DNA of 63,985 nucleotides, the filler included, from Reclinomonas americana ATCC 50394 (taxonomy: Eukaryota): assembly GCA_048213135.1 (NCBI GenBank). It is 7 parts of 4 records of this genome, joined end to end, with 100 filler letters (N's around TTAATTAATTAA, not from the genome) between each part and the next. Parts side by side here need not be neighbours in the genome. Positions count along the whole stretch, not along the records: positions 16,346 to 23,443 come from PS015439.1; positions 23,544 to 29,587 come from PS015439.1; 5 more parts are not named here. One strand, written 5' to 3'. Below the pieces are notes generated by a model. That model worked only from the letters and a program-made list of their open reading frames with translations. It made no database searches and had not been told where the DNA came from. Below are positions 2,664 to 59,628 of the stretch, in pieces; the first letter of the stretch is position 1; each line of letters starts with the position of its first letter. Position numbers and translations under genes: made by a program.

Positions 2664-2735
2664 AGCCGACTGTGGGGGTCGAACCCACGACCTTCTCCTT
2701 AGGAGGGAGACTCGCTACCACTGCGACAAGCCGGC
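2664..2735 (-). tRNA. tRNA-Arg(CCT), intronless
   Basis: Reverse complement folds as GCCGGCT TG TCGC AGTGGTA GCGA G TCTCC CT-CCT-AA GGAGA AGGTC GTGGG TTCGACC CCCAC AGTCGGC T. All four stems pair; anticodon CCT. Confidence 0.95.
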
Positions 2736-3161: not shown

Positions 3162-6100
3162 AGGAGAGGAGAGGAGAGAGAGAGGATNNNNNNNNNNNNN
3201 NNNNNNNNNNNNNNNNNNNNNNNNNNNNNNNNNNNNNNNNNNNNNNNNNNNNNNNNNNNNNNNNNNNNNNNNNNNNNNNNNNNNNNNNNNNNNNNNNNNN
3301 NNNNNNNNNNNNNNNNNNNNNNNNNNNNNNNNNNNNNNNNNNNNNNNNNNNNNNNNNNNNNNNNNNNNNNNNNNNNNNNNNNNNNNNNNNNNNNNNNNNN
3401 NNNNNNNNNNNNNNNNNNNNNNNNNNNNNNNNNNNNNNNNNNNNNNNNNNNNNNNNNNNNNNNNNNNNNNNNNNNNNNNNNNNNNNNNNNNNNNNNNNNN
3501 NNNNNNNNNNNNNNNNNNNNNNNNNNNNNNNNNNNNNNNNNNNNNNNNNNNNNNNNNNNNNNNNNNNNNNNNNNNNNNNNNNNNNNNNNNNNNNNNNNNN
3601 NNNNNNNNNNNNNNNNNNNNNNNNNNNNNNNNNNNNNNNNNNNNNNNNNNNNNNNNNNNNNNNNNNNNNNNNNNNNNNNNNNNNNNNNNNNNNNNNNNNN
3701 NNNNNNNNNNNNNNNNNNNNNNNNNNNNNNNNNNNNNNNNNNNNNNNNNNNNNNNNNNNNNNNNNNNNNNNNNNNNNNNNNNNNNNNNNNNNNNNNNNNN
3801 NNNNNNNNNNNNNNNNNNNNNNNNNNNNNNNNNNNNNNNNNNNNNNNNNNNNNNNNNNNNNNNNNNNNNNNNNNNNNNNNNNNNNNNNNNNNNNNNNNNN
3901 NNNNNNNNNNNNNNNNNNNNNNNNNNNNNNNNNNNNNNNNNNNNNNNNNNNNNNNNNNNNNNNNNNNNNNNNNNNNNNNNNNNNNNNNNNNNNNNNNNNN
4001 NNNNNNNNNNNNNNNNNNNNNNNNNNNNNNNNNNNNNNNNNNNNNNNNNNNNNNNNNNNNNNNNNNNNNNNNNNNNNNNNNNNNTGCTTCCCCTCCTGAG
4101 AGAGAGAGAGGCAGAGAAGCAACAACAACAAGAAGCTGCAGTCTTGCATCCGTTGCATTTCTCATTCCACTCTCTTCTTCCCTTCCCCTCTCTGCAGTCA
4201 CTGGAGACCTCCCGGCCCCTGTTCGTGCTCCACGATGGCCCACCATACGCCAATGGAAAGCTGCACACGGGGCATGCTGTGAACAAAATCCTGAAGGATA
4301 TCGTCGTGCGACATCGCCTCATGCGCGGCGATCGAGTGAGGTGTGAGGAGAGTGCTGCAAAGAGTGGCAGGCATGCAGCTGACTGAAGTGTCTTCTCATG
4401 CGACAGCTGGGTGTGCGGGTGGGACTGCCACGGCCTGCCCATCGAACTCAAGGCCATCAACGAGCGCAGCAGTCGGCAAATGAGCCCACTGGAGATTCGC
4501 TCCAGTGCGCGGGCGTTTGCGGGGGAGGCCATCAAGGATCAGGCGGCGGCATTTGCCGCGTGGGGCCTCCTCACCGACTGGAACGACGTGTACTTGACCA
4601 TGGATCCGGCGTATGAGGCCATGCAGCTGGATGTGTTTTGGCAAATGTTCAAGACCGGCTACTTGCATCGCGGGGTGCGGCCGGTCTATTGGAGTCCGAG
4701 TTCGCGCACGGCTCTGGCCGAGGCGGTGAGTCTCGAGGAATATAGAGAGTGTGTGTGTGTGGTCTTTCCCACTCACTTGTCGGCGTCGACACAGGAACTC
4801 GAGTACACGGATCAGCACGTGTCGACGTCGGCATATGTGTCGACACCAGTGGTGCGTGCGGACGGCGAGGCTGCTGCTGGTAGGTCAAGTGTCGGTGTAC
4901 ACATTCAATGCCATCCATCAACTGCATTCTTCCCCCGGCGCAGCTCTTCTCTCCCGCTTCCCGGGCCTGCAGATGGCTGTGTGGACCACCACACCGTGGA
5001 CCCTGCCGTCGAATCAGGTTTGCCGAGTGTCGCGCCACTGCTTCACCCACTTCCATTTCGGTTGATGACTGGTGCTTCTGCAGGCCATGTGTGTGCATCC
5101 GGAGCACGAATACTGCGTGGTGACAACTCCATCGTCGAATGTGCCACTGTTGTTGGGGGTCGAGCTGGTGGATCACGTCGCCAAGAGCGTGTTTGGTGGT
5201 GCCCCACTGCAAGTGGTCAGCGAGCCCATTTCCGGCACGCATCTGGCGAACCACATGTGGTGTGCGCACCCGTATTTCAGCACCACTGAAGTTACATGCT
5301 CATACACACGCAGGGGGTGTTTCAATTTCCCCTCCGTCTCACTCACGTACAAATTAGGTGCCGGTCTTGTCGGGGACGCACGTTACGAGTGACAGCGGCA
5401 CGGGCATTGTGCACACGGCGCCGGCGCACGGTCACGACGATTATGAAGTATGCAAGCAGTACGGAATTGAGCCGACGATGCGAGGTGTGGAGTTGAACGT
5501 GTCCACAATCTTGTGCCCTCATCTCATCCTCTCCGTTGCAGTGGACGATCTCGGTCTCTTCTGTCGTGGTACGGCTCCCGAGCTGGACGGCTTGGCCGTT
5601 CTGAAGGAGGGCAATGCGGCAGTGATTGAGAAGCTCAAGGCCGACGGACGCATTCTTGCCACCATGCCGTACCAGCATCGCTACCCCTACGACTGGCGGA
5701 CAAAGAAGCCCGTCATCATTCGTTCGACTCGTCAGTGGTTTGCACGCCTCTCTGATGGCTCTTCTGCGGGCGGACTGAAGGTGTGGACGGGGAGAGCGTG
5801 TGCGGATGATGTTGCGTTGCGTGCGCTCACGCGCTGCTTGTGTGTGTGTGTGCAGGATGCGGCCTCTCGTGTCGTGGAAGATGTGCAGTTTGTACCGCCG
5901 TCGTCTCGTGCACGTCTCGCTGGCATGCTTGGATCACGCTCTGAGTGGTGCATCTCACGTCAACGAGTGTGGGGTCTCCCCATTCCCGCATTTTACCACA
6001 AGGACACTGGTTTGTGCAGAAGCTGACGATGCGATTCCCCGACGCACACTCACTCTCAAATGCACTCTTTGCAGATGAGGTTCTGCTCGACGAATCAACC

Positions 6101-6242
6101 ATTCGTCACCTGCAGTCCCTTGTTCGCAACCACCCACGCGGATCCGACTGCTGGTGGGAGTTGTCCACTGCCGAGTTGCTTCCGGCCGAGCACAGACATC
6201 GAGGTCCGTGTGCGCCTCTCATACATGAGTGCTGACACTGAC

Positions 6243-6287
<45 letters not shown>

Positions 6288-8065
6288 CGCAGCTGCCGAG
6301 TTTGAAAAAGGCAAAGACACACTCGATGTGTGGTTCGACTCTGGCACCTCGTGGGCCGGCGTTCTGCGCCAGCGCAACATTTTCCCGGCCGATGTGTACC
6401 TGGAGGGCAGCGATCAGCATCGCGGCTGGTTCCAGTCATCGTTGCTTACGTCGGGTGCGTTCCAGCAAGATCACGAAAAACCACGCAGATGGTGGTTGAC
6501 TCACTTTTTCTTCCCATGTCGCATGTCAGTGGCGTGCTCCGGTCAAGCTCCGTATCGTCGCCTGGTGACGCACGGTTTTGTGGTGGACTCGGAGGGGCGA
6601 AAGATGAGCAAGAGCATCGGCAACATTGTGGAGCCGCACGTTATTGTGCAAAAGTATTCGGCCGATGTGCTGCGCGGTTGGGTGGCATCGTCGGATTACA
6701 CGGCTGATGTGCCACTCGGCGAGCAGCTGCTCAGTTGCGTTCCCCATGATGTGCATTCTTTTGCTGCTGCTACCACAATACTCACGGCATCGTCTCGCAG
6801 AGCATGTGGCAGAGGGTGTGCGTAAAGTACGCAACACGTGCCGTTTCCTGCTCGGCAATCTGCACGACTTTGTGCCCCTGGCAGTCGAGGAGCCCATCAC
6901 TCATCCACACGATCGCTACATGTTGCACCTGCTGGGTGACTTTGCGCGGCACGTGCAAACCGAGTACGACGAGTATGCCTTTTCACGAGGTTTTGTACTC
7001 TGCAGTTGCCCAGCCTCACGTTGCACGTCGTCGTCGTCACTCATGAGGTGCGCGCAACAGTGTGGACGCGAGTCTCCATTTTTTCGGCGTCGACTCTCTC
7101 CGCATTCTACCTCGACCTGATCAAAGACCGCCTGTACGCCGACGCGCCACAAAGTCACTCGCGACGGAGCGCGCAGCGCGTGTGTGCCAAAGTTACGTGT
7201 TTGTCATATCGGTGTCATCACTGATGCCGTGGACCTCACCGCGGTGACCGACAGATTCTCGAGTACCTCACCAAGTCTGTAGCCCCACTGCTGCCGCACT
7301 TGGCCGAGGACGTGTACCAGCACTTGCCAGCCGGGGCACAGTGGTCAAAGAAGAGTGTCGAGTCCGTCTTCGAAACAGGCTGGATTGATGCGGTTTGTAA
7401 TTCCTGCAGTGGTCCTCTTGCCTTTGCCGTCTCGCTCACCCGCGACGCAGCCATCCGAGTGGACACTGGACGCCGACATGCTTGCCAAGTGGACCGCGGC
7501 ACTGCGACTGCGCGACGCCTTTTACACTGTCGTCGATGTGGCGCGCAAGAAGAAGTTGCGCTGTGTGCGATTTGTGAGTGCATCACTTTTTCGTGAGTCT
7601 TACTTTTGCATGCACAGATTCGTGGGCAACTCACTCGAGTGCATCATGGTGATTGCGGCATCGGATGCAGCCATTCTCGCCGAACTGAAGCTACTCGCCT
7701 CTGAGGTGAATCTGGCCGATGCCGCACTTGTCTCGTCGGTGGAGTTTGCGACAGAGCCGGCACTGACTGGCGAGTATGTGGCATCGATTCCGTGGGCGGC
7801 CGACGCGACTGGTTCGTTTCCATTTGTGTTGTCGTGATTGCGACGGTTGCCGATGTTCACGAGTGCACTCGCAGTGTCGGTTGCTCTCACTCGCTCGACA
7901 AAGCACAAGTGCCCGCGCTGCTGGAAGCATGTGGCAGTCAAGGGTGTGGCATATACAGTTCTCGCCGCAGGTCACTCTCTCCAGTCCACTCATTCTCCTT
8001 TCTATTTCACAGAGAACGAGCTGTGCGGACGCTGTGATGATGTGATGCGCTCGTGGAACCAGTGA
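2852..8065 (+). CDS. IARS2: Isoleucyl-tRNA synthetase, mitochondrial/bacterial type (about 20 exons)
   Basis: Spliced product has an Arg-rich presequence (MWRHLQRWRRLFS), [95 protein letters not shown] and a C-terminal Zn finger (KCPRCWK...LCGRC). An N gap at 3188-4084 lies in an intron-like region. Confidence 0.95.
6246..6284. repeat. Intronic (CT)n microsatellite
   Basis: Pure CT dinucleotide run inside an IleRS intron. Similar runs occur at 175-192 and 3130-3157. Confidence 0.95.
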
Positions 8066-16058: not shown

Positions 16059-16289
16059 CTGTGACGCGTGGAAAGCAGAGGAGGTCAGCTCAGAGAGGGC
16101 CACTCTTGCACAGCGCTCTGCCTTTCTCGAGGATGAATGCTGCGCTTTCAGTCTGATCTCCTCTTCCTTCTTCGTCTTGTTGTTGATCCTTCTTCCTCTC
16201 TACTCCTCTTCTTCGCCTTCTCCTTCTTCTTCTTCTTCTTCTTCTNNNNNNNNNNNNNNNNNNNNNNNNNNNNNNNNNNNNNNNNNNNN

Positions 16290-16301
16290 TTAATTAATTA
16301 A
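16290..16301. other. Artificial scaffolding linker TTAATTAATTAA (also at 23488, 29632, 39374, 50061, 59573)
   Basis: Identical palindromic 12-mer of overlapping TAA stops, centred in a 100-nt N spacer, six times. Confidence 0.95.
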
Positions 16302-16345
16302 NNNNNNNNNNNNNNNNNNNNNNNNNNNNNNNNNNNNNNNNNNNN

Positions 16346-19300
16346 GTGCCAATGGCGGCTCCCAGGGCCAACGGGGGGACATACGTGCTGGTGGACAGCA
16401 CTGGCGCAGTCGGTATCACATTGCCTGTGGACAAAGAAGCACAAATGAGAACCCTGCAAGCCACGAAACATTGAATGCAGTTCACGCAACTCTCGTTGAT
16501 GATGAATGTAGATGAGCGCGAGCCACCGGCTCCGTCCGACACAGTGAGCTCCACTTCAAGACCATTGCCGCTGAGTCCGTTGACATTGGAGAGCAAGCTA
16601 CTACCAACAACGTAAAAGTCGGACAGATGTGTGCCACCGGTGACTGTGTAAACAAGTGTCTGCGCAGAATTCGCATCAGTGGCAGCCAGTGTGCCGATTG
16701 TGCCGCCCAAGGCCAGTGGTGGCGCATACAGAGAGGTCGAGAGTGTTGGTGCACTCGGGGGCACATTGCCTGCAATCAAGGGACAAGCATTCTGCGAGAG
16801 TGACATCGCGTCTTGGCACAGACTTCAATCACGCAACTCTCGCTGATCGAGAACGTCGTACTGTTGATACCTCCGGCGCCATCGCTGACTTGCACCGTCA
16901 CCTGCAGACTGTTTCCTGTCAAGCCGGCAACATTCGACAGCAGACTTGTGCCGCTGATGCTGAACGACGCCTGATTGCTCCCGCCGGTGATGGAATACGA
17001 GAGCGTCTGTCCCGTATTCGGATCGGACGACGAGAGGGTGCCAATGACACCGTTGAGTGCCAGAGGCGGCGCGTACGTCGAGGGTGACAGGGATGGAGCA
17101 GATGGTGGCACATTAACTGTGTACAGCAGCACCTCATTAGTACCAGCGTTAATGCATTCTGGAAGCACGAAACCGTACCTTCAGTAATGGTAAATGTGCT
17201 GCTGGAGGTGCCACCTGCACCATCACTGACGGTCACAACCACTTGCAAATTGATTCCACTCAGTCCCGCCACATTGGAGCGCAGGTCGGAGGCGACAATG
17301 ACAAACGAGCTTGCGTTGACGCCTCCGGTAATGGTGAACGTCAACGCTTGACCCGTATTGGGGTCTGTGGAGGACAGGGCGCCGATGACGCCGTTGAACG
17401 GAAGCGGCGGTGTGAATGAGAGCGCAGACAGCCCCGGCGCAGTGGGATTCACGTTGGCTGTGCGGTCGTGACAGACAATCAAATCAGCAAACAAAAATGG
17501 GACGTGCAGTCAGAGAGCAGGGTGCATCAGACCTTCGCCAATGACGAATGTGCTGACGTTGGTGCCACCGGCGCCATCCGACACAGTGACCTCCACCGAC
17601 AGATTGTTGCCGGTGAGTCCGGCAACACTGCTTCGGAGGCTGGAACCACTGATGTTGAACAGTGCCTGATGCGCACCACCAGTGATCGTAAACGTCAACG
17701 ACTGCCCGCTGTTGACGTCGGTGGATGACAGGATGCCAATGACTCCATTCGCGGTCAGTGGGGGAATGTACGACGAGGACGAGAGGATGGGTGCGGTGGG
17801 TGGCACGTTGACTGTGTGCGGGAGAAGCATGAGCAACAGCATGCACGACTTGTGCAAGCAAGACACGAGAGCGGCAGCGTGCCACCAACCTTCGCTGATC
17901 AGGAATCTGGCATTTGTCAGTCCGCCGAATCCATCGCTGACTTCGACAATAACCTCCAAATTGTTGCCGGCGAGACCAGCCACATTGGATCGCAAGTCTG
18001 AGCCACTGATGTTGAAGAGCGCCGAGTCGGCTCCTCCCAGAATGCTGAATGTCAGCGTCTGGCCGACGTTCGGGTCCGTGGCCGACAACGTGCCAATGAC
18101 GCCGTTGAGCGCCAGAGGTGGAACGTAAAGCACAGTCGACAACGTGGGCACAGACGGCGGTAAGTTCGCTGTGTTTCACGGAACAAAGTCAGGCAGGCGC
18201 AACAACCAGGAGATACAAAGAGTGAGTGGAATGCAACGCAACAGCTGCCGATTGTAAATGTTGCGGTGTTTGTGCCACCAGCACCGTCGCTAACTTGCAC
18301 AATGACCACCAAGTTGGAGCCGGAGAGGCCGGCAACGTCGGAGCGAAGATTGGACCCGATGATGTTAAACGAGGCTTGATCCGCACCACCCACAATGCTG
18401 AACGTCAAAACCTGCCCAGTGTTTGCGTCTGTCGAGGACAAGACGCCGATAACGTCATTGAAGGCCAGCGGTGGGTTGTACGCAGTCGACGAAATCGTCG
18501 GAGCAGACGGAGGCACATTGGCTGCGCACCACAGACACTAAGTCAGCCACGCGACTGCCATTTAAATGAAAACCTATGCAAACCTTCGCTGATGGTGAAC
18601 GTAGATGTGTTGGTGCCACCGGCTCCATCGCTCACTTGCACAATCACCTGCAGCGCGTTGCCACTCAAACCGGCCACATTGGATCGCAAGTCGGTGCCGC
18701 TGATGTTGAACGATGCCTGACTGGCGCCACCAACAATCGTGTACGTCAGCGTCTGCCCAGTGTTGGGATCAGTGGACGACAGGGTGCCGACAACGCCATC
18801 CATGGCCAGTGGGGGACTGTACGTCGAGGTGGACAGAGTCGGTGGCGTTGGCACAACATTGGCTGTCACAAAGGCAACAGAGTGTGCGAATGAGCGGGTG
18901 CAAAAAAGGAAGAAGCAAACGAACAAGCCACCACACTGACCTTCGCTGATGGTGAATGTGGACGTGTTGGTGCCACCTGCTCCATCGCTCACTTGCACAA
19001 TCACTTGCAGGCTGTTGCCGGTGAGACCAGCAACATTCGATCGCAAGCTGCTGCCGCTGATGTTGAACGATCCCATGCTGGTGCCGCCCGTGATGGTGTA
19101 CGTCAGCGTCTGGCCCGTGTTGGCGTCTGTCGAGGCGAGAGTGCCAATGACGCCATTTGTGGCGAGTGGCGGGATGTAAGTGCTGCTTGACAGTGTGGGC
19201 GCCGTCGGATTCACATTAGCTACGCAAGAGACAAGAACGATGGGTTAACGAGAAACTAGAAGGACGAGCGCAGTGCGCGTCGCTCCAACCTTCGTTGATG

Positions 19301-22300
19301 AGGAATGTCGCTGTGTTGGTGCCGCCTGCTCCATCGTCCACTTGCACAAGCACTTGGAGGTTGTTGCCCGTCAGCCCACCCACACTGGAGCGCAAATCCG
19401 TTCCACTGATGTTGAAGGATGACTGATGAGTGCCGCCAACAATCGAGTATGTCAACGTCTGGCCAGTGTTCGGGTCCGACGAAACGAGAGTGCCGATGAC
19501 GCCGTTGGCCGCCAATGGTGGCGCGTACACACTGGATGACAACGTTGGAATTGACGGCACCACATTGGCTGATTGGGAGATACAGTGAGTACGTCAGCCA
19601 CACAATGATTGACGCCTTCAGAGAGAGACACACCTTCGTCGATGACAAATGTTGCAGTTGTCACACCACCAGCACCGTCGCTGACTTGCACAATCACTTG
19701 CAGCGCGTTGCCCGTCAGGCCAGCGACATTCGACCGCAGACTCGAGCCGCTGATGTTGAACGACGCTTGATCCGCACCGCCCACAACAGTGTACGACAGC
19801 ACCTGACCAGTATTCACATCGGTCGACGACAGCATACCCACGACGCCATTCAGCGCCAAGGGCGGAATGTATGTGGACGTAGACAAGGTCGGTGCCGTGG
19901 GATTCACGTTCGCTGCACGAAACGGGAGTCAGCAAATAGCGCTGGCAGTCGTATCTACAGATACACACTTACCCTCGCTGATACTAAATGTTGTGCTATT
20001 CACTCCTCCGGCTCCGTCACTCACTTGCACAATCACTTGCAGGCTGTTACCCGAGAGAGCAGCAACGTGCGATTCCAAGATATTCCCATTGATCGAAAAC
20101 AGCGCTTGGTCGGCACCACCAATGATGGAAAACGTCAGCGTCTGGCCAGTGTTGGGGTCACTCGACGACAAGGTGCCAACATCGTCACCCATAGCAAGTG
20201 GCGGAATGTATGTCGTTGATGACAGAGTCGGTGCAGTTGGCGTGACATTGACTGCATGCGATGCAACAGAGTGAGGGCGAGAGTGGGGCCCAGCAGACTG
20301 CTTGCATAACATAGGATGCAAACCTTCGCTGATGGTGAACGTGGATGTGTTGATGCCACCGGCTCCATCGCTCACTTGCACAATCACTTGCAGTCCGTTG
20401 CCACTCAAACCAGCCACATTGGATCGCAAGTCGGTGCCGCTGATGTTGAAAGATGCCTGATTGGTACCACCAACAATCGTGTACGTCAGTGTCTGGCCAG
20501 TGTTGGGATCAGTGGACGACAGTGTGCCGACAACGCCATTCATGGCGAGTGGTGGAGCGTACGTCGAGGTGGATAGAGTCGGCGGCGTCGGCACAACATT
20601 GGCTGTAATGAAGATAATAGAGTGTGCGACTGAGCGGGTGCAAAAGGGAAGAAGCGAAAGAACAAGCCGCCACACGGACCTTCGCTGATCGTGAATGTGG
20701 AACTCGCCGTGCCACCTGCTCCATCGCTCACCTGCACAATCACTTGCAGGCTGTTACCGGTGAGTCCTGCCACATTCGATCGCAAGCTGCTGCCGCTAAT
20801 GTTGAACGATCCCATACTGGTGCCGCCCGTGATGGTGTACGTCAGCGTCTGACCCGTGTTGGCGTCCGTCGAGGCGAGAGTGCCAATGACGCCATTTGTG
20901 GCGAGTGGTGGGGTGTAAGTGCTGCTTGACAGAGTGGGTGCCGTCGGATACACATTGGCTACGCAAGAGACAAGAGCGATGGGTCAGTGAGGACAAGAGA
21001 GACGAGCGCAGTGCGAGCCAGTCCAACCTTCGTTGACGAGGAATGTCGCAGTGTTGGTGCCGCCGGCTCCATCGTCGACTGTGACGATCACTTGGAGGTT
21101 GTTGCCCGTGAGATTCGACACTGCTGTCACGAGGCTGTTCCCACCGCTGATTGAAAACAGTGACTGGTCGGTGCCGCCAGAGACATAGTAAGTCAGCGAC
21201 TGCCCCGAGTTTGGGTCTGTCGACGACAGCATGCCAATGACGCCGCCAAGTGCCAGTGGCGGCGCATATGTCGACGACGACAGCGTTGGTGCGGTTGGTG
21301 TCACGTTGACTGCAGCCACGGTGGTGAACAACAACGCGGATAAACAAATAAGGAACAGGATCGACTGACGCAACGCTCATCAATGTCGAATACGAAAGAG
21401 TTCGTGCCACCAGAGCTGGCCGTGACAGTGATCTCAACCTGCAAGTTGTTTCCGACAAGGCCCGCGACGTTGGAACGCAGGTCCGTGCCACTAATGTTGA
21501 AGGATGCTTGGTTGGCGCCACCAGTGATCGAGAATGTGAGCGTGTCACCAGCCACGGCAGGTGTTGCGGAGAGAGTGCCAATCACGCCATTCAGAGCAAG
21601 TGGCGGCGTGTACAGCGTTGTCGACAAGACCGGGACCGTCGGACTCATGTTGGCTGTGAGAGGAGAGTCAGCGCACCAAGGGCGATCTCTTCAAAAATCA
21701 TCTGCATCACGCAAACCTTCCGAAATGTTGAACGTGGACGAGCGAGTTCCTCCAGCTCCGTCGCTGACAGTGACAATCACTTGCAGTCCGTTACCGGTGA
21801 GGCCAGACACACTGGAGCGCAGATCCGTGCCGTTGATGTTGAATGATGCCGAATTGGTACCGCCGGTGATGGAGAAGGTCAGTGTCTGACCGGTGTTGAC
21901 ATCGGTCGACGCCAGAGTGCCGATTACTCCGTTCAGCGCGAGCGGCGCCACGTACAAGTTCGTGGAGAGTGTCGGCGCAGTGGGTACCACGTTGGCTGTG
22001 CTCATAGACATATGTGATGAAGTGGATTAACAGTGAATAAATGCATCGCCTTACCTTCAGATATGTTAAACGTTGTCGTGTTCACACCACCGGCACCGTC
22101 GCTCACTTGCACAATCACTTGCAGGCTGTTGCCAGTGAGGCCTGCCACATTGGATCGCAGGTTGGTGCCGCTGATGCTGAATGAGGCAGAGTTGGTGCCA
22201 CCAACAATGGAAAACACAAGTGTCTGGCCCGTGTTCGGGTCTGTCGACGACAATGTGCCAATCACACCATTCAAAGCGAGAGGCGGGGTGTACGTGGTAG

Positions 22301-25300
22301 ATGACAGAGCCGGAGCAGTGGGGACCACATTGGCTGTGCAGAGCGGCGTCAGGGACTGAGACAGAGAAACACAGTGCGAAGCACAGGATAGCACGCTCAC
22401 CTTCGCTGATGGTGAATGTCGTGCTCGCCGTGCCGCCTGCTCCATCACTCACTTGCACAATCACTTGAAGGTTGTTACCCGTCAACCCAGCCACATTCGA
22501 TCGCAAACTCGTGCCACTGATGTTGAAAGAAGCTGAGTTGGTGCCGCCCGTGATCGTGTAAGTCAGCGTCTGGCCAGTGTTGGGGTCCGTAGACGACAGC
22601 GTTCCAATTGTTCCGTTGAGAACGCGTGGCGGAGTGTAGGTCGAGGAGGACAGCGTCGGAGCACTCGGCGCAACATTAGCTGCAAAATGGTGAGGACGAA
22701 ACCAATACTCGCTGCGTAAAAAAGGCTCAAGGAGCAGAGCGTACACGCACCTTCGTTGATGGTGAAGGTCGAGCTCGCGGTCAGAGTTCCATCGCTCACT
22801 TGCACAATCACTTGCAGACTATTGCCAGTGAGGCCAGCAACGCTGGATCGCAAACTCGTGCCACTGATGTTGAATGACGCTTGATTCGTGCCGCCCGTGA
22901 TTGTGTACGTCAGAGTCTGACCCGTGTTGGGATCCGTCGATGACAGGGTGCCGATCACTCCGTTCGAGGCAAGAGGAGGAGTGTATGTCGACGATGAGAG
23001 CGTCGGTGCAGTCGGTGCAACATTGACTGTATAGTGAGGCGACAAGTAAGGAAAGTGCTAAAAACGACAGCGTAGGGAGAATACTACACACCTTCGCTGA
23101 TGGTGAATGTTGCCGAGCGGTTTCCCACTCCATCGCTCACGCGCACAATCACTTGCAGATTATTGCCTGTCAGGCCGGCCACATTGGATCGCAGACTCGT
23201 GCCACTGATGTTGAACGACGCCGAATTGGTGCCACCGGTGATTGTATACGTCAGCGTCTGGCCAGTGTTCGGATCGGTCGACGCCAGAGTGCCGATCACT
23301 CCATTCGAGGCAAGTGGCGGTGTATACGTTGATGGAGACAATGTCGGCACAGTCGGCAGAACATTGGCTGCAGCAGCAACGAGAATGAGTAAGGCGACAG
23401 GCTAGCCTCGAAAAATTGCAGAAAACAGACCCTCGTTGATCGTNNNNNNNNNNNNNNNNNNNNNNNNNNNNNNNNNNNNNNNNNNNNTTAATTAATTAAN
23501 NNNNNNNNNNNNNNNNNNNNNNNNNNNNNNNNNNNNNNNNNNNCGTATACGTCAGTGTCTGGCCGGTGTTGGCATCTGTGGACGCAAGCGTGCCGATCAC
23601 TCCGTTGGAGGCAAGTGGTGGCGTGTAAGTCGATGACGACAGGGTGGGTGCAGTTGGTGCGACATTGGCTGTGACATCAACACAGAATGATTCAGCCACG
23701 CATGCGTGCATGTCAGCTCTCCCAAAAAGTACTCACCCTCGTTGATGGTGAATGTCGTACTTGCCGTTCCGCCCGCTCCATCGCTCACTTGCACAATCAC
23801 TTGTAGATTGTTGCCTGTGAGGCCAGCCACATTCGATCGCAAACTGGTGCCGCTGATGTTGAATGATCCCATGCTTGTCCCGCCCGTAATCGTGTACGTC
23901 AGCGTCTGACCGGTGTTGGGATCCGTCGACGCAAGCGTGCCGATCACTCCGTTGGAGGCAAGAGGAGGAGTGTATGTTGACGAGGACAGCGTTGGTGCGG
24001 TTGGAATCACATTTGCTAATGCCACCAACCATGTGAGTCGCATAACAATAGGATCAAGCTGGCCAGGCAGAATGGCACACCTTCGCTGATTGTAAATGTT
24101 GTGGTCGCCGTCAGGGATCCATCACTCACTTGCACTATTACTTGCAGGTTGTTGCCCGTCAGCCCAGCTACATTCGACCGCACGCTACTGCCACTGATGT
24201 TGAACGATGCCTGATTCGTGCCACCCGTGATCGTGTAGGTCAGTGTCTGACCCGTATTGGGGTCCGTCGACGCCAGAGTGCCGATCACTCCATTCGAGGC
24301 AAGCGGTGGCACATACGTATTACTCGACAAGGTGGGCGCGGTCGGCGCAACATTGACTACATCATAAGCTCCGTGAGGCGTAGAAGTGACTGGTTTCGAC
24401 GACACGCACAACAGCAAACCTTCGCTTATGGTGAACGTGGTGTTTGCTGTGCCACCAGCCCCGTCGCTCACTTGCACAATGACCTGAAGGTTGTTGCCCG
24501 TGAGGCCAGCAATATTGGATCGCAAGCTGGTGCCGCCGATGGTGAATTTGGTCTGATTCGTGCCACCGGTGATGGTGTATGTCAGTGTTTGACCCGTATT
24601 GGGGTCTGTCGATGCCAGCGTGCCGATCACTCCATTCAAGGCCAGTGGCGGAGTGTACGTCGATGATGACAGCGTTGGTGCAGTCGGCGCAACGTTGACT
24701 TAAGACAATGCAGGATTAATCACGACGCATGCTACTCTGTCGCAGAAACTTCGTGAAACACAACGCACCTTCGCTGATGGTGAACGTTGAGCTTGCTGTG
24801 CCTCCCGCTCCATCGCTCACTTGCACAATTACTTGCAGATTGTTGCCAGTGAGACCGGCCACATTCGATCGCAGACTCGTACCACTGATGTTAAAGGATC
24901 CCATATTCGTGCCACCGGTGATGGTGTACGTCAGCGTCTGACCCGTGTTGACATCGGTTGACGCCAGAGTGCCAATGACGCCATTGGAGGCGAGTGGAGA
25001 AGTGTACGTGCTGCTCGACAGCGTCGGTGCAGTCGGCGCGACATTTGCTGCAACAAGAGCGAAGGAATAGGTTCAGCGAGCAGCAGGACCGAGTGCTGGA
25101 AGTGTGCACCGACCTTCGCTGATGGTGAACGTGGTGCTTGCCGTCCCACCTGCTCCGTCGCTCACTTGCACAATCACTTGCAAGCTATTGCCAGTTAGGC
25201 CAGCCACACTCGATCGCAAGCTCGTGCCACTGATGTTGAAGGAGGCCGAGTTGGTGCCACCGGTGATGGTGTACGTCAGGGTCTGACCCGTGTTGGGGTC

Positions 25301-28300
25301 GGTCGACGATAGTGTGCCAATCACTCCGTTCAAGGCTAGAGGCGGTGTGTAGGTGTTGCTGGACAATGTCGGTGCAATTGGAATCACATTAGCTGATGTC
25401 ATCAACCGTGAGCCACAAGATAAGTCAATCGAGGGCAAACGAATAGCATCAAACCTTCGCTAATTGTAAACGTTGTGGTCGCCGTCAGTGTGCCGTCACT
25501 GACTCGCACAGTCACTTGCAGGTTGTTGCCCGTGAGGCCAGCCACACTAGAACGCAAACTCGTGCCGCTGATGTTGAACGACGCCGAGTTGGTACCGCCA
25601 GTAATGGTATACGTTAGTGTCTGGCCAGTGTTTGGGTCGGTTGACGAGAGCGTGCCGATCACTCCGTTCGAGGCAAGCGGGGGAGTATACGTCGACGACG
25701 ACAGTGCCGGTGCTGTCGGTGCAACATTGACTGCGAGATGTTGCTGAATTGTAAGCGTACAGCAGTGAATCAAACGGATGACTTCAACGAACGCCAAACC
25801 TTCGCTTATGGTGAAAGTCGCGCTTGCCGTTCCGCCCGCTCCATCACTGACTTGCACGATAACTTGCAGATTGTTCCCCGTGAGACCTGCCACATTTGAT
25901 CGCAGGCTGGTGCCACTAATGTTGAATGACGCCGAGCTGGTGCCACCGGTGATTGTGTACGTCAGGGTCTGACCCGTGTTGACATCTGTCGACGCCAGAG
26001 TGCCGATCACTCCATTAGAGGCAAGCGGCGGAGTGTATGTCGATGAAGACAGGGTCGGCGCAGTCGGTGCGACATTGGCTGTAACATCGGTCGTGTGAGT
26101 CACACGATGAAAGGATTGAGAGAGTCCAGAGGAAAACAACACACTGACCTTCGCTGATGAGAAAGGTTGACGTCGCCGTCAGAGTTCCATCACTGACTCG
26201 CACAATCACTTGCAATCCGTTGCCAGTAAGACCGGCCACACTTGATCGCAGACTGGTGCCACTGATGTTGAAGGAGGCTTGATTCGTGCCACCGGTGATT
26301 GTGTACGTCAGTGTCTGACCAGTGTTGGGATCGGTTGATGACAAGGTGCCAATCACTCCGTTCGTGGCGAGAGGTGGAGTGTACGTGTTGCTCGACAGCG
26401 CGGGCGCTGTCGGCGCAACGTTGACTGCGATTCGGCGATGATGTCAGCGACCACTGTCGGCAAGCAATTGCTTCAGAGACATTGCAGAGACGTACAAACC
26501 TTCGCTGATGGTGAACGTGGCACTAGCCGTGCCTCCTGCCCCGTCACTCACTTGCACGATGACTTGCAGGTTGTTGCCAGTGAGACCTGCCACATTGGAT
26601 CGCAAGCTAGTGCCGCTGATGTTGAACGACGCCGAGTTGGTACCGCCAGTGATCGTGTACGTCAGTGTCTGACCCGTGTTGGGATCGGTTGACGAGAGCG
26701 TGCCGATCACTCCGTTCGAGACAAGCGGGGGAGTATACGTGCTACTTGACAGCATCGGTACCGTCGGTGCAACATTGACTGCGTGATGCGGGTGAGTTAT
26801 CAGCGCACAACGGTGAAACGATTGGATGACTTCAACGAAAATACCTTCGCTGATGGTGAATGTGGCACTCGCAGTCCCTCCCGCGCCATCACTCACTTGT
26901 ACGATGACTTGTAGATTGTTGCCCGTCAACCCAGCCACATTCGATCGCAAACTCGTGCCGCTAATGTTGAATGAAGCCGAGTTGGTGCCACCGGTGATTG
27001 TGTACGTCAGCGTCTGACCCGTGTTGACATCAGTCGACGCCAAAGTGCCTATCACGCCGTTCAGCGCGAGCGGGGAAGTATACGTCGACGATGACAGTGT
27101 CGGTGCAGTCGGCGCGACATTGGCTGTAACACCGAACGTGTGAGTACACGATAAGTGGATTGAGAGAGTCCAGAGGAAAACAACACACTGACCTTCGTTG
27201 ATGAGAAAGGTTGTCGTCGCTGTCAGAGTTCCATCACTGACCCGCACAATCACTTGCAAGCCGTTGCCCGTGAGGCCAGCAACACTCGATCGCAAACTGG
27301 TGCCACTGATGTTGAATGATGCCTGATTCGTGCCACCCGTGATGGTATACGTCAGTGTCTGGCCAGTGTTGGGGTCGGTTGACGAGAGAGTGCCAATGAC
27401 TCCATTCAAGGCGAGCGGAGGTGTGTAGGTGCTGCTTGACAGCGTCGGTGCAGTCGGCGCAACATTGACTGACGGACAAGACGGGGAATCAGACGGCAAG
27501 TGATGCAACCAAAGACGTAGAAGTGCTCAAACCTTCGCTGATAGTGAAAGTCGAGGTCGCCGTCAACGATCCGTCACTGACTCGCACAATCACTTGCAGG
27601 TTGTTACCTGTCAGTCCGGCCACATTAGATCGCAGACTCGTGCCGCTGATGTTGAACGACGCCGAGTTCGTGCCACCCGTGATGGTGTACGTCAGTGTCT
27701 GACCCGTGTTGACATCGGTTGACGCCAGAGTGCCAATCGCTCCATTCAAGGCGAGCGGAGGTGTGTAAGTGCTGCTCGACAGCGTCGGTGCCGTCGGCGC
27801 AACATTGACTGACGGACAAGGCTGGATTCAGACGGCTAGCGATGCAACTGAAGACTGACATGGACGCAAACCTTCGCTAATGCTGAACGTCGTGCTTGCC
27901 GTGCCTCCCGCGCCATCGCTCACTTGTACGATGACTTGCAAGTTGTTGCCAGTGAGGCCAGCCACATTCGATCGCAAGCTGGTTCCGCTGATATTAAACG
28001 ATGCCGAGTTGGTGCCGCCCGTGATGGTATACGTCAGAGTCTGACCGGTGTTCACATCCGTCGACGCCAGCGTCCCAATCACGCCGTTCAAAGCGAGCGG
28101 CGGGGTGTACGTGTTGCTGGTGAGAGTTGGCGCAGTCGGTGCCACATTCGCTGCGGGGTGGCACAATGTTAGGACACAAAAACGGATGATGGGTCCCAAC
28201 AATTACCGCAAGCACACACCTTCGTTGATTGTAAACGTCGAGGTCACAGTCACAAATCCGTCCAGGACCCGCACAACTACTTGCAGTCCATTGCCAGTGA

Positions 28301-29536
28301 GGCCAGCCACGTTTGATCGCAAGCTCGTGCCGCTGATGTTGAAGGAGGTTTGATTCGTGCCACCAACAATGGAAAATGTCAGCGTCTGGCCAGTGTTGGG
28401 ATCCGTCGACGACAGCGTGCCGATCACTCCGTTCAAGGCCAGTGGCGGTATGTACGTGTTATTTGACAGAGCCGGTGCCGTCGGCGTAACATTGGCTGCG
28501 TGATGCCACTGAGTTGTCAGCGCACGCAAGTGAATGGCTATTGAAATCGACGACAGATACCACACCTTCGCTGATGGTGAACGTGGCACTCGATGTGCCT
28601 CCCGCTCCATCGCTCACTTGCACAGTTACTTGCAGGCTGTTGCCAGTGAGACCAGCCACATTCGATCGCAAGCTGGTTCCGCTGATGTTGAACGACGCCG
28701 AGTTGGCGCCGCCGGTGATCGTGTACGTCAGTGTCTGGCCCGTGTTCACGTCCGTCGAAGCCAGAGTGCCAATCACGCCGTTCAGCGCGAGTGGCGGAAT
28801 GTACGTGCTGCTCGACAGAGTTGGCGCAGTCGGCGCAACATTGGCTGACGGGGAGAGCGGTGAGTTTCACGACAAACGGTGCGAGGGGGCAGAGAAACAA
28901 CAACAAACTTTCGTTGATAGTGAAGGTTATGCTTGCTGTCAGTGTCCCGTCACTGACTCGCACAATCACTTGTAGGTTGTTGCCCGTGAGGCCAGCCACA
29001 TTCGACCGCAGACTCGTGCCGCTGATGTTAAACGACGCCGAGTTGGTGCCACCATTGATCGTGTACGTCAGCGTCTGACCAGTGTTGGGATCCGTCGACG
29101 ACAGTGTGCCAATTGTTCCGTTCAGGGCCAGAGGAGGAGTGTACGTCGACGAGGATAGAGTCGGTGCCGTCGGTGCAACATTGGCTGCCAACAGGAAATC
29201 ACCAGTGTCAGCCACAATAATCGGACTCAGCTCCTAAACGCATTTGGTGGGCCTGACCTTCGTTGATGAACCACGTCGTGCTTGCTGTACCACCAACACC
29301 GTCGCTCACTTGCACAGTCACTTGCAAGTTGTTGCCAGTGAGGCCTGAAACATTGGACCGCAAGCTCGTGCCGCTGACGTTGAACGACGAAGCATTCAAG
29401 CCACTGGTAATGGTATAGGTCAGCGTCTGGCCCGCATTGCTATCCGTCGACGACAGCGTGCCGATAATGCCATTTAAGGCTAGGGGCGGTATGTACGTCG
29501 TGCTTGACAGGGTCGGTGCAGCGGGGGCAAAGTTGG
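16346..29536 (-). CDS. Giant extracellular protein of tandem cadherin-like domains, one domain per exon; both ends missing
   Basis: 37 complete exons of 276/279/282 nt plus 3 partial pieces (for example 29258-29536, 28909-29184, 28566-28844 ... 16838-17116, 16491-16769). All 38 visible introns are phase 1, GT-AG, 59-78 nt. Consensus NVAPTAPTLSSSTYTPPLALNGVIGTLSSTDPNTGQTLTYTITGGTNSASFNISGTSLRSNVAGLTGNNLQVIVQVSDGAGGTASTTFTISE. No stops or frameshifts seen. Confidence 0.88.
16346..29536. repeat. Tandem exon+intron repeat array, unit about 345 bp
   Basis: Recurring exon DNA at about 340-355 bp spacing. Exons are conserved and introns mostly diverged. Confidence 0.95.
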
Positions 29537-30184
29537 CTACAATCACCAGAGGGTGAGGAAGACGCAAGCAAGCAAAGGAGAGTGAATNNNNNNNNNNNNN
29601 NNNNNNNNNNNNNNNNNNNNNNNNNNNNNNNTTAATTAATTAANNNNNNNNNNNNNNNNNNNNNNNNNNNNNNNNNNNNNNNNNNNNAAATTCAATCATT
29701 CATCGTTCATTGACTGTGTGTTGACGAAGATTCTCAAGCAAGGGAGGGGGGAAAGCTATGTCAAAAAACAAGGAGGAGTAGTACGCGGACCAAGATATAC
29801 ATACATGCGAGAAGGGGGGGTGGGTTGGATGGAGAAACTCTAACGGGGTGGCGGAAACAAGAGCAAGACATGACAACAACAACAGGAGAGGGAGGAGCGC
29901 GCGGCGCTGGGAAAATCAATACCCGCAGCCGACATACACAACAGCTGGGGAGGGACGGCGCGCAGGAGAATTCAGGCTCAGATGCACATGCACGCACGCG
30001 CACACAGCAAAGACACTTACAGGGCAGGTGGCGCGCGGCACAGACGCACACAGGATTTTTTCACCAAAGTACAGGAAAAATTATTCACAGGAGACACACC
30101 AAAGGGGGGAAAAGACTACGGAGTGGAGGCAGAGGGAAAGGAGAGCAGCGGCTCCTCTCCAACCAGCGGTAGCAGGCACGGGAA

Positions 30185-34785: not shown

Positions 34786-37700
34786 TCACCGCTCCTCCAC
34801 CCTTCCCAGATCAATGACGCCTACAAACATCGCAAAGTCGTCGTAGCGACCACGGTCGGGGGCGTAGGCTTCACGATGTGCAAAGAACGTGGCGGCCTTC
34901 TCTGCAAAGTCCTCCCAGTATGGTCGAACTTCCACGCCTTCCTCCTCGCCCTTGCGGCATTCGGTCCACGCCGACAGCAGGAGCTTGCGCAACTGCTCGC
35001 CCACCCAGTCGTGCTCCTCTTGCTGTGACATAGACTTGTTAGCTTACTGCGCACGAAAGGCACGGCAAGTGAGAGAGAAGAGACGCACCAGTACGAATCG
35101 GTAGCGCGTGCTATCGTCGTGAATGTAGCTCCAGAATCCGTCGCTCGCCATGATGAAGATGACCTGGTGGCGTGGCTTGGTGTAGTGAATCACCTTCCGC
35201 CGCACAACAGCTGGTGCTGCTGAGCCTTGCGGCGCCGACGACGACGACACCGTTGCACCAGCGGGAAGTGCCGGCAGTGGCGGTGGCGGCGGTGTGGAGG
35301 ATGACACCGATGGGGGCGGAGGTGGTGGTGGAGGTGGAGGTGGAGGTGGAGGCGGCGGCGGCGTAGGAAGTTTTCGCGTGTGCGAAGACGCTCGCGTGGC
35401 ACCCGCCGCCGGTGGATCGCCAGAGATGTTGACCAACGTGAACGACGACTTCGCAGCTGTCTTGGATGGACGCGCTTTGCTGCGCTTCCGTGCCGGAGCC
35501 GAACTGGAGTCGTCCGCGGATGCACGGGATCGCTTCTTGGCGGTGCTGGTGGTGGTGGATTTCGTCGCCATCGGCTTGCGCGCCGCCTGCACCACCACTG
35601 CGGCGGCCGGTAACCTCAGCGTCTCGCGCCACTCCAGCTCACCCTCCGAGTCTTCGTCGTCCACCGTGGAGAGCACTTCCAACTGCTGCACCGACCGTGC
35701 GACCTTGAGTCGCAGCATTCCCCTCCGACGCCGGCGGGCACGATTGCGCGCTCGTGCGGCAGGAGCGTCGGAGGCAGGCGATCGTTCCGGCGACGACGTC
35801 AACATCCCCGATGAGCCCGACGGTGACTGCGTGACCAGCGGCGCACTGCTGTCCATGTCCATTGCAGAGGAGATGGACTCGGGAGTCGACTGCGAGGCGC
35901 GATGCAGTGCGCTCTCCGCAGCCGTTGCCGCTGCCGTTGTCGGTGTCGTCGTCGTTGTCGTTGTCGTCGTCGTCGTCGTTGTCGTTGTCGTTTCACTGAC
36001 ATCGGCAGGCACACCGACATTGGTGGCCGCTGATCGCGACGCTGCCATCACAGCGAGCGTCCTTCCCGACCGCCGGGTGTACGACTTCTCGCCTGCATTT
36101 GCACGTCGTGAAGCCGAAGACTTTGCCTTGCGGGCATCGGCATCCCATTCTGCAACACACATGAGCATCGCTGACACTTCTTCTGCGTCTTCTCCCACAC
36201 TGTGGTCAATCGCACGCGTACCAGCACTGTCCGGCAGCGGAGCACCTCCATGGCTCGTGTATTCTACGCATCATCATCATCATCATCGTCACTGACTAGT
36301 GGGGTGGAGAACACAGACGGACAGCAAGTCGCACCTTCCAGAACTCGGTCGGCCGACGGCAATGTGAAATGTGGTGCAACGGAACCTGCTGCGCGAACAA
36401 GAGTGCGTGAGATGAAGCCTGCGAGTTCGCCAGCCGCCAGCACACTTACCATACTTGCCTCCGCGTGGTTTAGCACCGACAGCGTTGTCGACAGGTGTTG
36501 CTCTCGACGATGCCGACGCCGAGTGTCCCTCACCGCCAACGGCGACGACTGGCATGCTCATCTCCACGTCGCCACCGCCGCCGGACAACGCTACCAGTTG
36601 CTCCTGCATCTGGAGTCGCGCGTCCGCTACATGAGCAGACGGTGGCAACGACGGAGATGGAGGTGAAGAGAGCTCGTCCACCTCCGGCATTGGCGACAGC
36701 GGTGCGACGAACTCGTCAGACGACGGCCCGGATCCTTGAGTTGGTGGGTGCACGTCGTCGGCCGACGGCACATACGCGTCGTAAAGCGCCGCTACAAGGT
36801 CATCGGCATCCATACCTACGCCAGCATTCAGTCTCATACAACCACAACAAGAAAACGTGCACCACAAACACACCAATATGCCGATCGGGACCATGCTCAT
36901 GGCTGTCGTGCGGCTGTGCGCACTCCTCGGATCGCTTCTCGTCGTCTGGAGACGGACCTGGCAGAGAGCAATAAAAAGAGTCAGCAGAAATGCAACCATA
37001 AGCGGCAGAACATTCACCCGCCTCTCACGCAACTCAGACCCTGCCGATAAATATCCGATGTCGGCGGCGCTGGACCGGCGGACGGAGGAAACGGCAAGCG
37101 CATCGGATTCGCTGCTGTGTACAGCATGCACAAGTGAGTCCATCTCGTGCATCACACTCGTTCGTCTCTTTTGCCATCCATCACGCAACGCCAGGAAAAC
37201 GCATTAGTCTCCGGCTGTGGCAAGTTCACGGCGGTCGGCGACTGCCACTGCAACCGGCTCCCCGTCAACCAGCCGGCCTGCGGGCCAGAAGCTGGCGTCA
37301 TCGTCGTCTGCGTGGTGGCAGATGGCACCAAGGAGTACATTGGCGTCGATGATGGCGGAGGAACATGAAATCCCTCTCCAAGGGACGGCAAGCCTCCACC
37401 TGCCACAGCCGCGAACGGGTGTCCCATGGAGCCTCCTACGCCAGCACCACCAATCACCGCCATATTAAACTGTGCACCGAGAACGGGCAGCGGGTAGCCA
37501 CTATCAGCCGTCATACGACGAGAGGTGGGCGCCAGAGTCGAATTTGGTTGATGAGCAATGTACGACGGTCCAGGTAGAACTGGCGGCGGGCGCATGACCG
37601 TCGTCGGCAGCGCAGTCGCCGTCACGTGAACACGCTCACCCACAGGCGTCAACGACGCAAGCTGTGGCGGCAGCGGGACAGGAGACGCAAGCACCATGGA

Positions 37701-39329: not shown

Positions 39330-39429
39330 NNNNNNNNNNNNNNNNNNNNNNNNNNNNNNNNNNNNNNNNNNNNTTAATTAATTAANNNNNNNNNNNNNNN
39401 NNNNNNNNNNNNNNNNNNNNNNNNNNNNN

Positions 39430-49976: not shown

Positions 49977-50153
49977 GTAGTGGTTTGTGTGCAGAGGCAG
50001 TAGTCATGCATTACTCNNNNNNNNNNNNNNNNNNNNNNNNNNNNNNNNNNNNNNNNNNNNTTAATTAATTAANNNNNNNNNNNNNNNNNNNNNNNNNNNN
50101 NNNNNNNNNNNNNNNNGTGTGCCTGTGTGGCGATTGCTCACCCTTCTGTCCAG

Positions 50154-59528: not shown

Positions 59529-59628
59529 NNNNNNNNNNNNNNNNNNNNNNNNNNNNNNNNNNNNNNNNNNNNTTAATTAATTAANNNNNNNNNNNNNNNN
59601 NNNNNNNNNNNNNNNNNNNNNNNNNNNN

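Follow-up and report, generated by a model that had tools for sequence, protein, structure and literature searches.

A one-domain-per-exon array of bacterial-type cadherin-like repeats in the genome of Reclinomonas americana

The stretch of DNA analysed here (the window; 63,985 nucleotides (nt), filler included, from assembly GCA_048213135.1 of Reclinomonas americana ATCC 50394) carries an array of cadherin-like repeats in which every complete exon encodes a single domain of 92–94 amino acids (aa). The array probably forms the central part of a very large protein-coding gene, with at least about 3,500 aa and 39 modules assembled, in a GC-rich eukaryote with short introns, and taken together with the fold and the relatives of the module this architecture leads us to favour a product that is secreted or surface-anchored, probably glycosylated, and shaped as a calcium-independent rod well over 100 nm long that would serve as an extender or adhesive fibre. 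The evidence comes from the layout of the exons and introns, from a predicted structure that matches extracellular cadherin (EC) domains, from sequence relatives in giant bacterial surface proteins, and from the record of duplication and selection kept in the copies themselves.

Results

Architecture of the gene

The window consists of separate assembly pieces chained by six identical 100-nt artificial linkers (N44-TTAATTAATTAA-N44), and further gaps of 20–897 N lie inside the pieces. Two linker-bounded contigs, A and B, hold the array, which lies on the minus strand (Table 1). Scanning for open phase-1 frames between AG and GT gave 36 exons; a 37th, E32, was missed by the strict scan and was added by hand after reading the DNA. 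All 37 complete exons follow one plan. Twenty-seven measure 279 nt, nine 276 nt and one 282 nt, each takes its first two bases from one split codon and its last base from another, which puts all introns in phase 1, and each carries one module with a phase-1 intron on either side, an arrangement in which any subset of exons stays in frame. A search of the whole window with a profile of the repeat returned 39 domain matches, all on the minus strand within 16346–29587 and none elsewhere. Spliced, contig A (E01–E17) yields 1,573 aa and contig B (E18–E37) 1,858 aa, in total 3,431 aa with no stop codon, and both ends of the gene fall in linkers. These counts agree with an earlier note on this DNA, which had described at least 39 repeats in exons of 276, 279 or 282 nt, one domain to each symmetric phase-1 exon, and a product of more than 3,400 aa with both termini missing, but had not given the strand.

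The 35 introns between complete exons all run from GT to AG and are 59–78 nt long, and a further three (68, 63 and 66 nt), also complete, adjoin partial exons, for a total of 38. A G at position +5 (31 of 35) and a C at position −3 (30 of 35) are conserved, and the introns are T-rich and A-poor, with a GC content of 0.51 against 0.57 in the exons. Because a WD40 gene on a neighbouring piece has introns of similar length (59, 70, 75 and probably 73 nt) with matching signals, as read by eye, the introns of the array appear ordinary for this genome. The idea that the spacers are in-frame linkers of a bacterial open reading frame (ORF) was ruled out: 17 of the 35 contain an in-frame stop on read-through, and 20 of the 35 have a length that is not a multiple of three and shift the frame.

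Fold of the module

Across the alignment of the 37 repeats the mean column identity is 83%, and 14 columns are invariant. AlphaFold2, applied to E03 with the 37 repeats as the alignment, returned a confident beta-sandwich (predicted local distance difference test (pLDDT) 95.2; predicted template modelling score (pTM) 0.83). In an exhaustive structural search the top 50 rows were all EC domains of cadherins, protocadherins, CELSR or FAT proteins, with Z scores of 9.7–11.6, root-mean-square deviations (rmsd) of 1.8–2.5 Å and 85–92 of 92 residues aligned. The predicted seven-strand sandwich superimposes on solved EC domains, which by fold places it in the cadherin superfamily. The model thereby shows each exon as one predicted beta-sandwich with the cadherin EC fold, and the term cadherin-like, used in the earlier note, is correct for the fold.

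At the level of sequence the signal toward animal cadherins is marginal. A profile search of Protein Data Bank (PDB) sequences recovered eight chains at E ≤ 1, all of them from CELSR1, protocadherin-15 or cadherin-23 (best, CELSR1, E 3.3e-4), and the whole nine-EC CELSR1 chain scores 23.9 bits. None of the 37 repeats matches Pfam Cadherin (PF00028) at E ≤ 0.01; the matches below the cut-offs were to Cadherin_5 (E 0.083), Cadherin-like (E 0.11) and, in one repeat, Cadherin_CELSR2_9th (E 0.0081). Of the 37 repeats, 24 match the bacterial Ig family Big_9 (PF17963) at E ≤ 0.01, the best with E 2.3e-5 and 25.6 bits against a cut-off of 23.6; since most repeats lie near or below that cut-off, the module is a borderline member of the family. 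The Pfam scan found no match to Cadherin_4 (PF17803) among the repeats.

Relatives of the module

The closest proteins are giant bacterial 'cadherin domain-containing' proteins, with 40–47% identity per domain. Searching 1.84 billion representative proteins with the repeat profile gave 8,519 matches at E ≤ 1e-3, of which the best scored 810 bits over 34 stretches. Organism names among the relatives, where given, are all bacterial (Chitinophagales, Silvanigrellaceae, Rhodopirellula, Stieleria, Flavobacterium and others), and in the protein atlas the nearest clusters consist of cadherin-domain proteins whose recorded source is Bacteria. In pairwise comparison a Stieleria protein is 45% identical over 96 columns (E 4e-14) and the protein P0007 is 42% identical. 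Seven of the top matches were scanned; all seven carry many PF00028 and Cadherin_4 domains, and two end in a type IX secretion sorting domain. Sequence similarity places the module in the bacterial-type branch of the cadherin superfamily (the Big_9 or Cadherin_4-like repeats of giant surface proteins), and support for homology to the PF00028 family is transitive only, via bacterial relatives that carry PF00028. The contrast between these scores and the 23.9 bits of CELSR1, the best-matching of the solved animal cadherins, supports the suggestion in the earlier note that the protein was independently built.

Four relatives are closer still. P0391–P0394 are single-domain ORFs on short contigs of other assemblies and are 46–68% identical to the array repeats. 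Their similarity stops exactly at the 3′ exon boundary of the array gene, as judged from the point at which ORF similarity is lost, with G next in three of the four, and this suggests that the exon-per-domain build may be common to related organisms. In P0392, P0393 and P0394 the loop after the conserved Asp reads N-C-C where the array has N-T-G, and the adjacent cysteines could be a disulfide or metal site without a counterpart in the array gene. A metagenome scan with one repeat yielded eight loci of 32–41% identity and no close relative.

Linker residues and composition

Calcium-dependent cadherins have conserved calcium-binding motifs in and around the linker, xEx and DxD among them. For Lévesque et al. 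(PMC2926784), the LDRE and DxND motifs are what distinguishes a true cadherin from the cadherin-like proteins of bacteria. Both LDRE and DxND are absent from the 37 repeats: 'LRSNVAGL' stands at the place of the LDRE-type residues and '..SE-A/V-NVAP' at the place of DxNDNxP. Because the array lacks the motifs by which that work recognizes a true, calcium-dependent cadherin, its linkers are predicted to be calcium-independent. Only at three columns, D31, D79 and E93, do at least half of the repeats have an acidic residue (36 of 37 at each), and none of these columns falls at the E of 'AEN', the 'GD' or the 'GDxDN' of the bacterial relatives. Of these acidic features, the E of 'AEN' is replaced here by P, L or N, 'GD' has become 'GQ', and the 'GDxDN' loop is deleted.

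The composition is extreme. The 3,394 repeat residues (37 repeats without the split codons) include no Cys, one Lys and one Trp, with His and Met almost absent, and Ser and Thr together make up 30%; acidic residues number 139 against 46 basic ones, which leaves the product net acidic. As the bacterial relatives do contain Lys, its near-total loss is specific to the array. An N-I-S sequon occurs at one column in 28 of the 37 repeats, and other sequons are sporadic.

Selection and growth of the array

Each copy of the module is under strong purifying selection, and silent sites and introns have drifted almost to saturation. Over the 666 exon pairs the mean proportion of synonymous differences (pS) is 0.64 and that of nonsynonymous differences (pN) 0.18; the median ratio of nonsynonymous to synonymous divergence (dN/dS), a comparison among repeats that the earlier note had proposed, is 0.13, and all 588 pairs for which the ratio could be calculated fall below 1. 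Pairs that are 93–97% identical in protein agree at only 0.41–0.58 of four-fold sites. Four-fold identity averages 0.425 overall against 0.28 expected from composition, and introns have a mean identity of 0.585, which falls to 0.533 on shuffling. These values, with the column identity given above, quantify what the earlier note had seen as conserved amino acids amid variable synonymous sites and introns.

Repeated tandem duplication, most of it old, built the array from a unit of one exon and its phase-1 intron, in some cases copying blocks of three or five units. The intron is assigned to the unit because some intron pairs are still alike: those after E07 and E10 (0.90), E25 and E30 (0.83) and E24 and E29 (0.81), where the maximum for shuffled introns is 0.67. 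Similarity within contig A peaks at lags of 3 and 6, and DNA identities of 92% for both E25/E30 and E26/E31 mark a five-unit block as a more recent duplication. Neighbouring exons, on the other hand, are 67–76% identical in DNA, the longest run of identical bases shared by a pair of exons never exceeds 41 nt (median 14), and in none of the 666 pairs does it reach 50. Recent concerted evolution was considered and ruled out, given four-fold sites near saturation, diverged exons and exact matches of at most 41 nt.

This history also bears on intron phase. The earlier note had named phase 1-1 modules as the hallmark of exon-shuffled extracellular domains in animals, but the retained intron similarity points to tandem duplication here, and a search for the module in other genes, made within the 64-kb window, gave no match outside the array. 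The uniform phase can be understood as a by-product of duplication, since a duplicated internal exon survives only if it is symmetric.

Other genes in the window

The other pieces carry ordinary eukaryotic genes, namely an organellar-type isoleucyl-tRNA synthetase (IleRS), a short-chain dehydrogenase, cofilin, the WD40 protein and cysteine dioxygenase. Gene neighbourhood across any linker is not to be trusted, and the adjacency of the array to flanking genes is uncertain. The IleRS gene spans several exons. Its nearest proteins, 50–58% identical, are of bacterial or organellar type; most come from bacteria and a few from scattered eukaryotes (Acrasis, Naegleria, Monoraphidium), and by this resemblance it is probably an organelle-targeted copy. 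A cofilin exon lies closest to actophorin and yeast cofilin (E 3e-4 to 1e-2), with apicomplexan ADF well behind (E 0.56–0.75). Rfam and ARAGORN, run over the window, found nothing beyond a single tRNA-Arg (anticodon CCT; 63.8 bits), on which both agree. A 408-aa open frame with long poly-Thr and poly-Pro runs has no Pfam match, and dinucleotide repeats (GA, TC, CT, AG, CA) are frequent across the window.

Table 1. Positions of the repeat array, the artificial linkers and other features along the window. Exons are listed 5′ to 3′, from contig A to contig B.
Feature	Position	Strand	Length (nt)	Remarks
Contig A	23544..29587	-		51 nt of upstream intron (29587-29537), E01-E17, partial 18th exon
E01	29258..29536	-	279	first complete exon, in the most 5′ assembled part
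E02	28909..29184	-	276	
E03	28566..28844	-	279	first sequence of the repeat alignment; used for the structure model
E04	28220..28495	-	276	
E05	27872..28150	-	279	
E06	27533..27808	-	276	
E07	27193..27468	-	276	following intron 90% identical to the intron after E10
E08	26845..27123	-	279	against E11, 97% protein identity and 0.53 at four-fold sites
E09	26500..26778	-	279	
E10	26149..26424	-	276	
E11	25800..26078	-	279	
E12	25455..25730	-	276	
E13	25114..25392	-	279	
E14	24769..25047	-	279	
E15	24420..24698	-	279	
E16	24081..24356	-	276	
E17	23737..24015	-	279	
Partial 18th exon	23668-23544	-	125	end of contig A
Contig B	16346..23443	-		13-nt exon tail, E18-E37, partial last exon
Partial exon tail	23443-23431	-	13	start of contig B
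E18	23092..23367	-	276	
E19	22751..23026	-	276	
E20	22401..22679	-	279	
E21	22055..22333	-	279	
E22	21717..21995	-	279	
E23	21375..21653	-	279	most divergent repeat; lacks the conserved D31 and D79
E24	21028..21309	-	282	sole exon of this length
E25	20680..20958	-	279	92% DNA identity to E30, within the five-unit segmental duplication
E26	20324..20602	-	279	92% DNA identity to E31
E27	19973..20251	-	279	
E28	19634..19912	-	279	
E29	19290..19568	-	279	
E30	18941..19219	-	279	
E31	18584..18862	-	279	
E32	18243..18521	-	279	ends ...TIGS, donor T|GTTGCG
E33	17890..18168	-	279	
E34	17533..17811	-	279	
E35	17179..17457	-	279	
E36	16838..17116	-	279	
E37	16491..16769	-	279	last complete exon
Partial last exon	16424-16346	-	79	end of contig B
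Linker	29588..29687	.	100	hides the 5′ end of the gene
Linker	23444..23543	.	100	splits the array
Linker	16246..16345	.	100	hides the 3′ end of the gene
Linker	39330-39429		100	
Linker	50017-50116		100	
Linker	59529-59628		100	
IleRS	4387-7117	+		several exons
tRNA-Arg (CCT)	2664-2735	-		
408-aa open frame	35047-36270	-		

Discussion

A rod with the role of extender or adhesive fibre fits the at least 39 EC-type modules, the lack of Cys, the Ser and Thr content, the net acidic character and the recurrent N-I-S sequon. One exon and one phase-1 intron formed the unit that was repeatedly duplicated in tandem, with blocks of three or five units copied in some cases, and each copy then stayed under purifying selection as its silent sites and introns drifted. 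The product would work as the tandem Ig-like repeats of giant bacterial adhesins do.

Several points weigh against this interpretation. The exon model and the splicing are predictions from sequence alone, and it is the fold and the relatives of the module, and these only, that suggest an extracellular location and a part in adhesion. Both contigs of the array consist of repeats only, with no signal peptide, anchor or non-repeat domain in the assembled part, and the order, adjacency and copy number of the two contigs are uncertain owing to the artificial linkers; the contig ends may be places where near-identical copies dropped out. With regard to fold, of the five AlphaFold models two scored poorly (pLDDT 64 and 59), and Foldseek against the PDB gave no match at E ≤ 0.001 (best 1.1e-3), though cadherins rank first. 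With regard to glycosylation, the total of 54 sequons is fewer than the 81.6 ± 7.8 expected from composition, and the recurrence of N-x-S/T sequons proposed in the earlier note holds for the N-I-S column and not for the rest. Finally, the eukaryotic lineage may have received the module from bacteria, but the databases searched are dominated by bacteria and the relationship is drawn from sequence similarity and not from a tree, so such a transfer is put forward here as an inference and not as a result.

Among the alternatives, a filament of tunable length, with copy number varying among isolates by unequal crossover and isoform length varying by the skipping of symmetric exons, strikes us as unlikely. 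The symmetric phase of all exons and the more recent five-unit duplication speak for it, as do the three breaks of the assembly in or at the array, which would be expected with more similar copies. However, neighbouring exons so diverged in DNA, with exact matches so short, make a poor substrate for unequal crossover, and four-fold sites near saturation indicate that the assembled part has been stable for a long time and free of concerted evolution. The proposal in the earlier note that length is tuned by unequal crossover is accordingly disfavoured for the assembled part, to which this verdict is limited, as more similar copies may be missing at the three breaks.

Improbable to a similar degree is a component of a matrix, wall, cyst or scale, or a carbohydrate-binding protein, whose modules bind polysaccharide. 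Its attraction lies in the bacterial cadherin-like repeats that are the closest relatives of the module, in the extreme composition, and in Rap proteins, whose cadherin-like Ra/CHDL domains are described as interacting with exopolysaccharide (PMC9298526). Yet the repeats display no sequence sign of a sugar-binding site, and the bacterial examples bind calcium through acidic motifs that are missing here. Such a function is also compatible with an extracellular rod, and the present data do not separate the two.

We think it quite doubtful that the array encodes a true calcium-dependent cadherin, vertically inherited and homologous to the cadherins of animals, choanoflagellates, Thecamonas or Pythium, with a role in cell–cell or cell–prey adhesion. 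The EC fold with its high Z scores is consistent with this, the only PDB sequence matches are to CELSR1, PCDH15 and CDH23, and cadherins are known from non-animal eukaryotes (PMC4265756, PMC2926784). Set against these are the failure of every repeat to reach PF00028, the loss of LDRE and DxND with acidic residues conserved at D31, D79 and E93 only, and a bacterial match (810 bits over 34 stretches, and 45% identity) far better than that of the whole CELSR1 chain. A non-working gene, whether a decaying repeat, a mis-assembly or a bacterial gene with spacers misread as introns, would agree with contigs that are all repeats and end in linkers, but is highly improbable in view of 3,431 spliced codons with no stop beside stops in 17 of 35 introns in the matching frame, the low dN/dS, the uniform GT..AG introns with conserved +5 G and −3 C and a T-rich, A-poor composition unlike that of the exons, the matching intron type of the WD40 gene, and copies too divergent in DNA to be assembly duplicates.

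A rod of the kind we favour has parallels in several known systems. The closest relatives, the giant cadherin-type proteins of Planctomycetota, Bacteroidota and other bacteria (PF00028 with PF17803 and PF17963), likewise contain tandem arrays, of 10–36 repeats of about 95–100 aa that start with N-x-A-P-T and end with T-F-T-I. Their genes are intronless, whereas the array has 38 introns of spliceosomal type, which sets it apart from giant bacterial adhesins as prokaryotic, intronless genes with a bacterial secretion or sorting signal (type IX secretion CHU_C, RTX); their repeats are also 3–5 residues longer, keep the E in 'AEN', 'GD' and 'GDxDN', and reach Pfam Cadherin, as none of the 37 array repeats does. 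The repeats of giant bacterial adhesin extenders are often nearly identical in DNA. RTX and other giant adhesin extenders offer a functional analogy, with near-identical beta-sandwich spacers forming a rod that bears a ligand-binding head (PMC12077191, PMC8092209), but they are rigidified by calcium, and the array is highly diverged in DNA, lacks calcium motifs and has no head domain in its assembled part.

The long cadherins of animals (cadherin-23, protocadherin-15, FAT, CELSR) share the fold (Z 10–11.6, rmsd about 2 Å over about 90 residues) and the extended, unbroken series of EC-type modules that make up a rod, but they differ in their marginal sequence similarity and in the calcium-binding linker motifs that the array lacks. 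According to Björklund et al. (PMC1553488), the linkers between animal cadherin repeats have significantly fewer exon junctions than expected, whereas every linker of the array carries an intron; the layout of the array is unlike that of animal cadherin genes, as the earlier note had indicated in stating that classical cadherin introns do not generally follow repeat boundaries. One module per symmetric phase-1 exon is instead the pattern of animal Ig, EGF and FN3 arrays, and the same authors find exon junctions over-represented in Ig and EGF linkers and describe these domains as duplicating singly (PMC1553488). Those arrays differ in domain family, the genome at hand is probably not that of an animal, and the pattern seen here is explained by tandem duplication of one unit, with no match to the module elsewhere in the window. 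The cadherins described from Pythium ultimum, Phytophthora, Thecamonas trahens, choanoflagellates and Capsaspora (PMC2926784, PMC4265756) resemble the array in having cadherin-fold repeats and no catenin-binding tail; those of Pythium are set apart, by their description in PMC2926784, through LDRE, DxND and 2–17 Pfam-significant EC domains, neither of which features the array has. A full-text literature search found no description of an exon-per-domain cadherin-like array in a protist, though one may still exist.

The most familiar arrays of cadherin-fold modules are those of animal adhesion and of giant bacterial adhesins, and here a bacterial-type module is found in a eukaryotic gene with one exon for each module. 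This bears on how extracellular repeat proteins were assembled outside animals, and on whether exon shuffling is needed, as tandem duplication of one unit was enough to produce symmetric phase-1 exons in this case. Identities of up to 97% in protein beside about 50% at silent sites, over dozens of copies, amount to an unusually clean case of selection on each copy, and the array provides a natural test of whether silent divergence stabilizes long arrays. A bolder and more tentative scenario is that a eukaryote acquired a bacterial cadherin-type adhesin module, which came to be flanked by a phase-1 intron and was multiplied one exon at a time until it formed a calcium-independent rod of more than 3,400 aa, with near-saturated silent divergence protecting the array from homologous recombination. 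A giant surface fibre of cadherin fold would thereby have been reached independently, by a path outside animals and possibly one that a whole lineage uses, given the related single-domain exons found elsewhere. If the bacterial origin is true, a transferred adhesin module would have been rebuilt into a very large eukaryotic protein.

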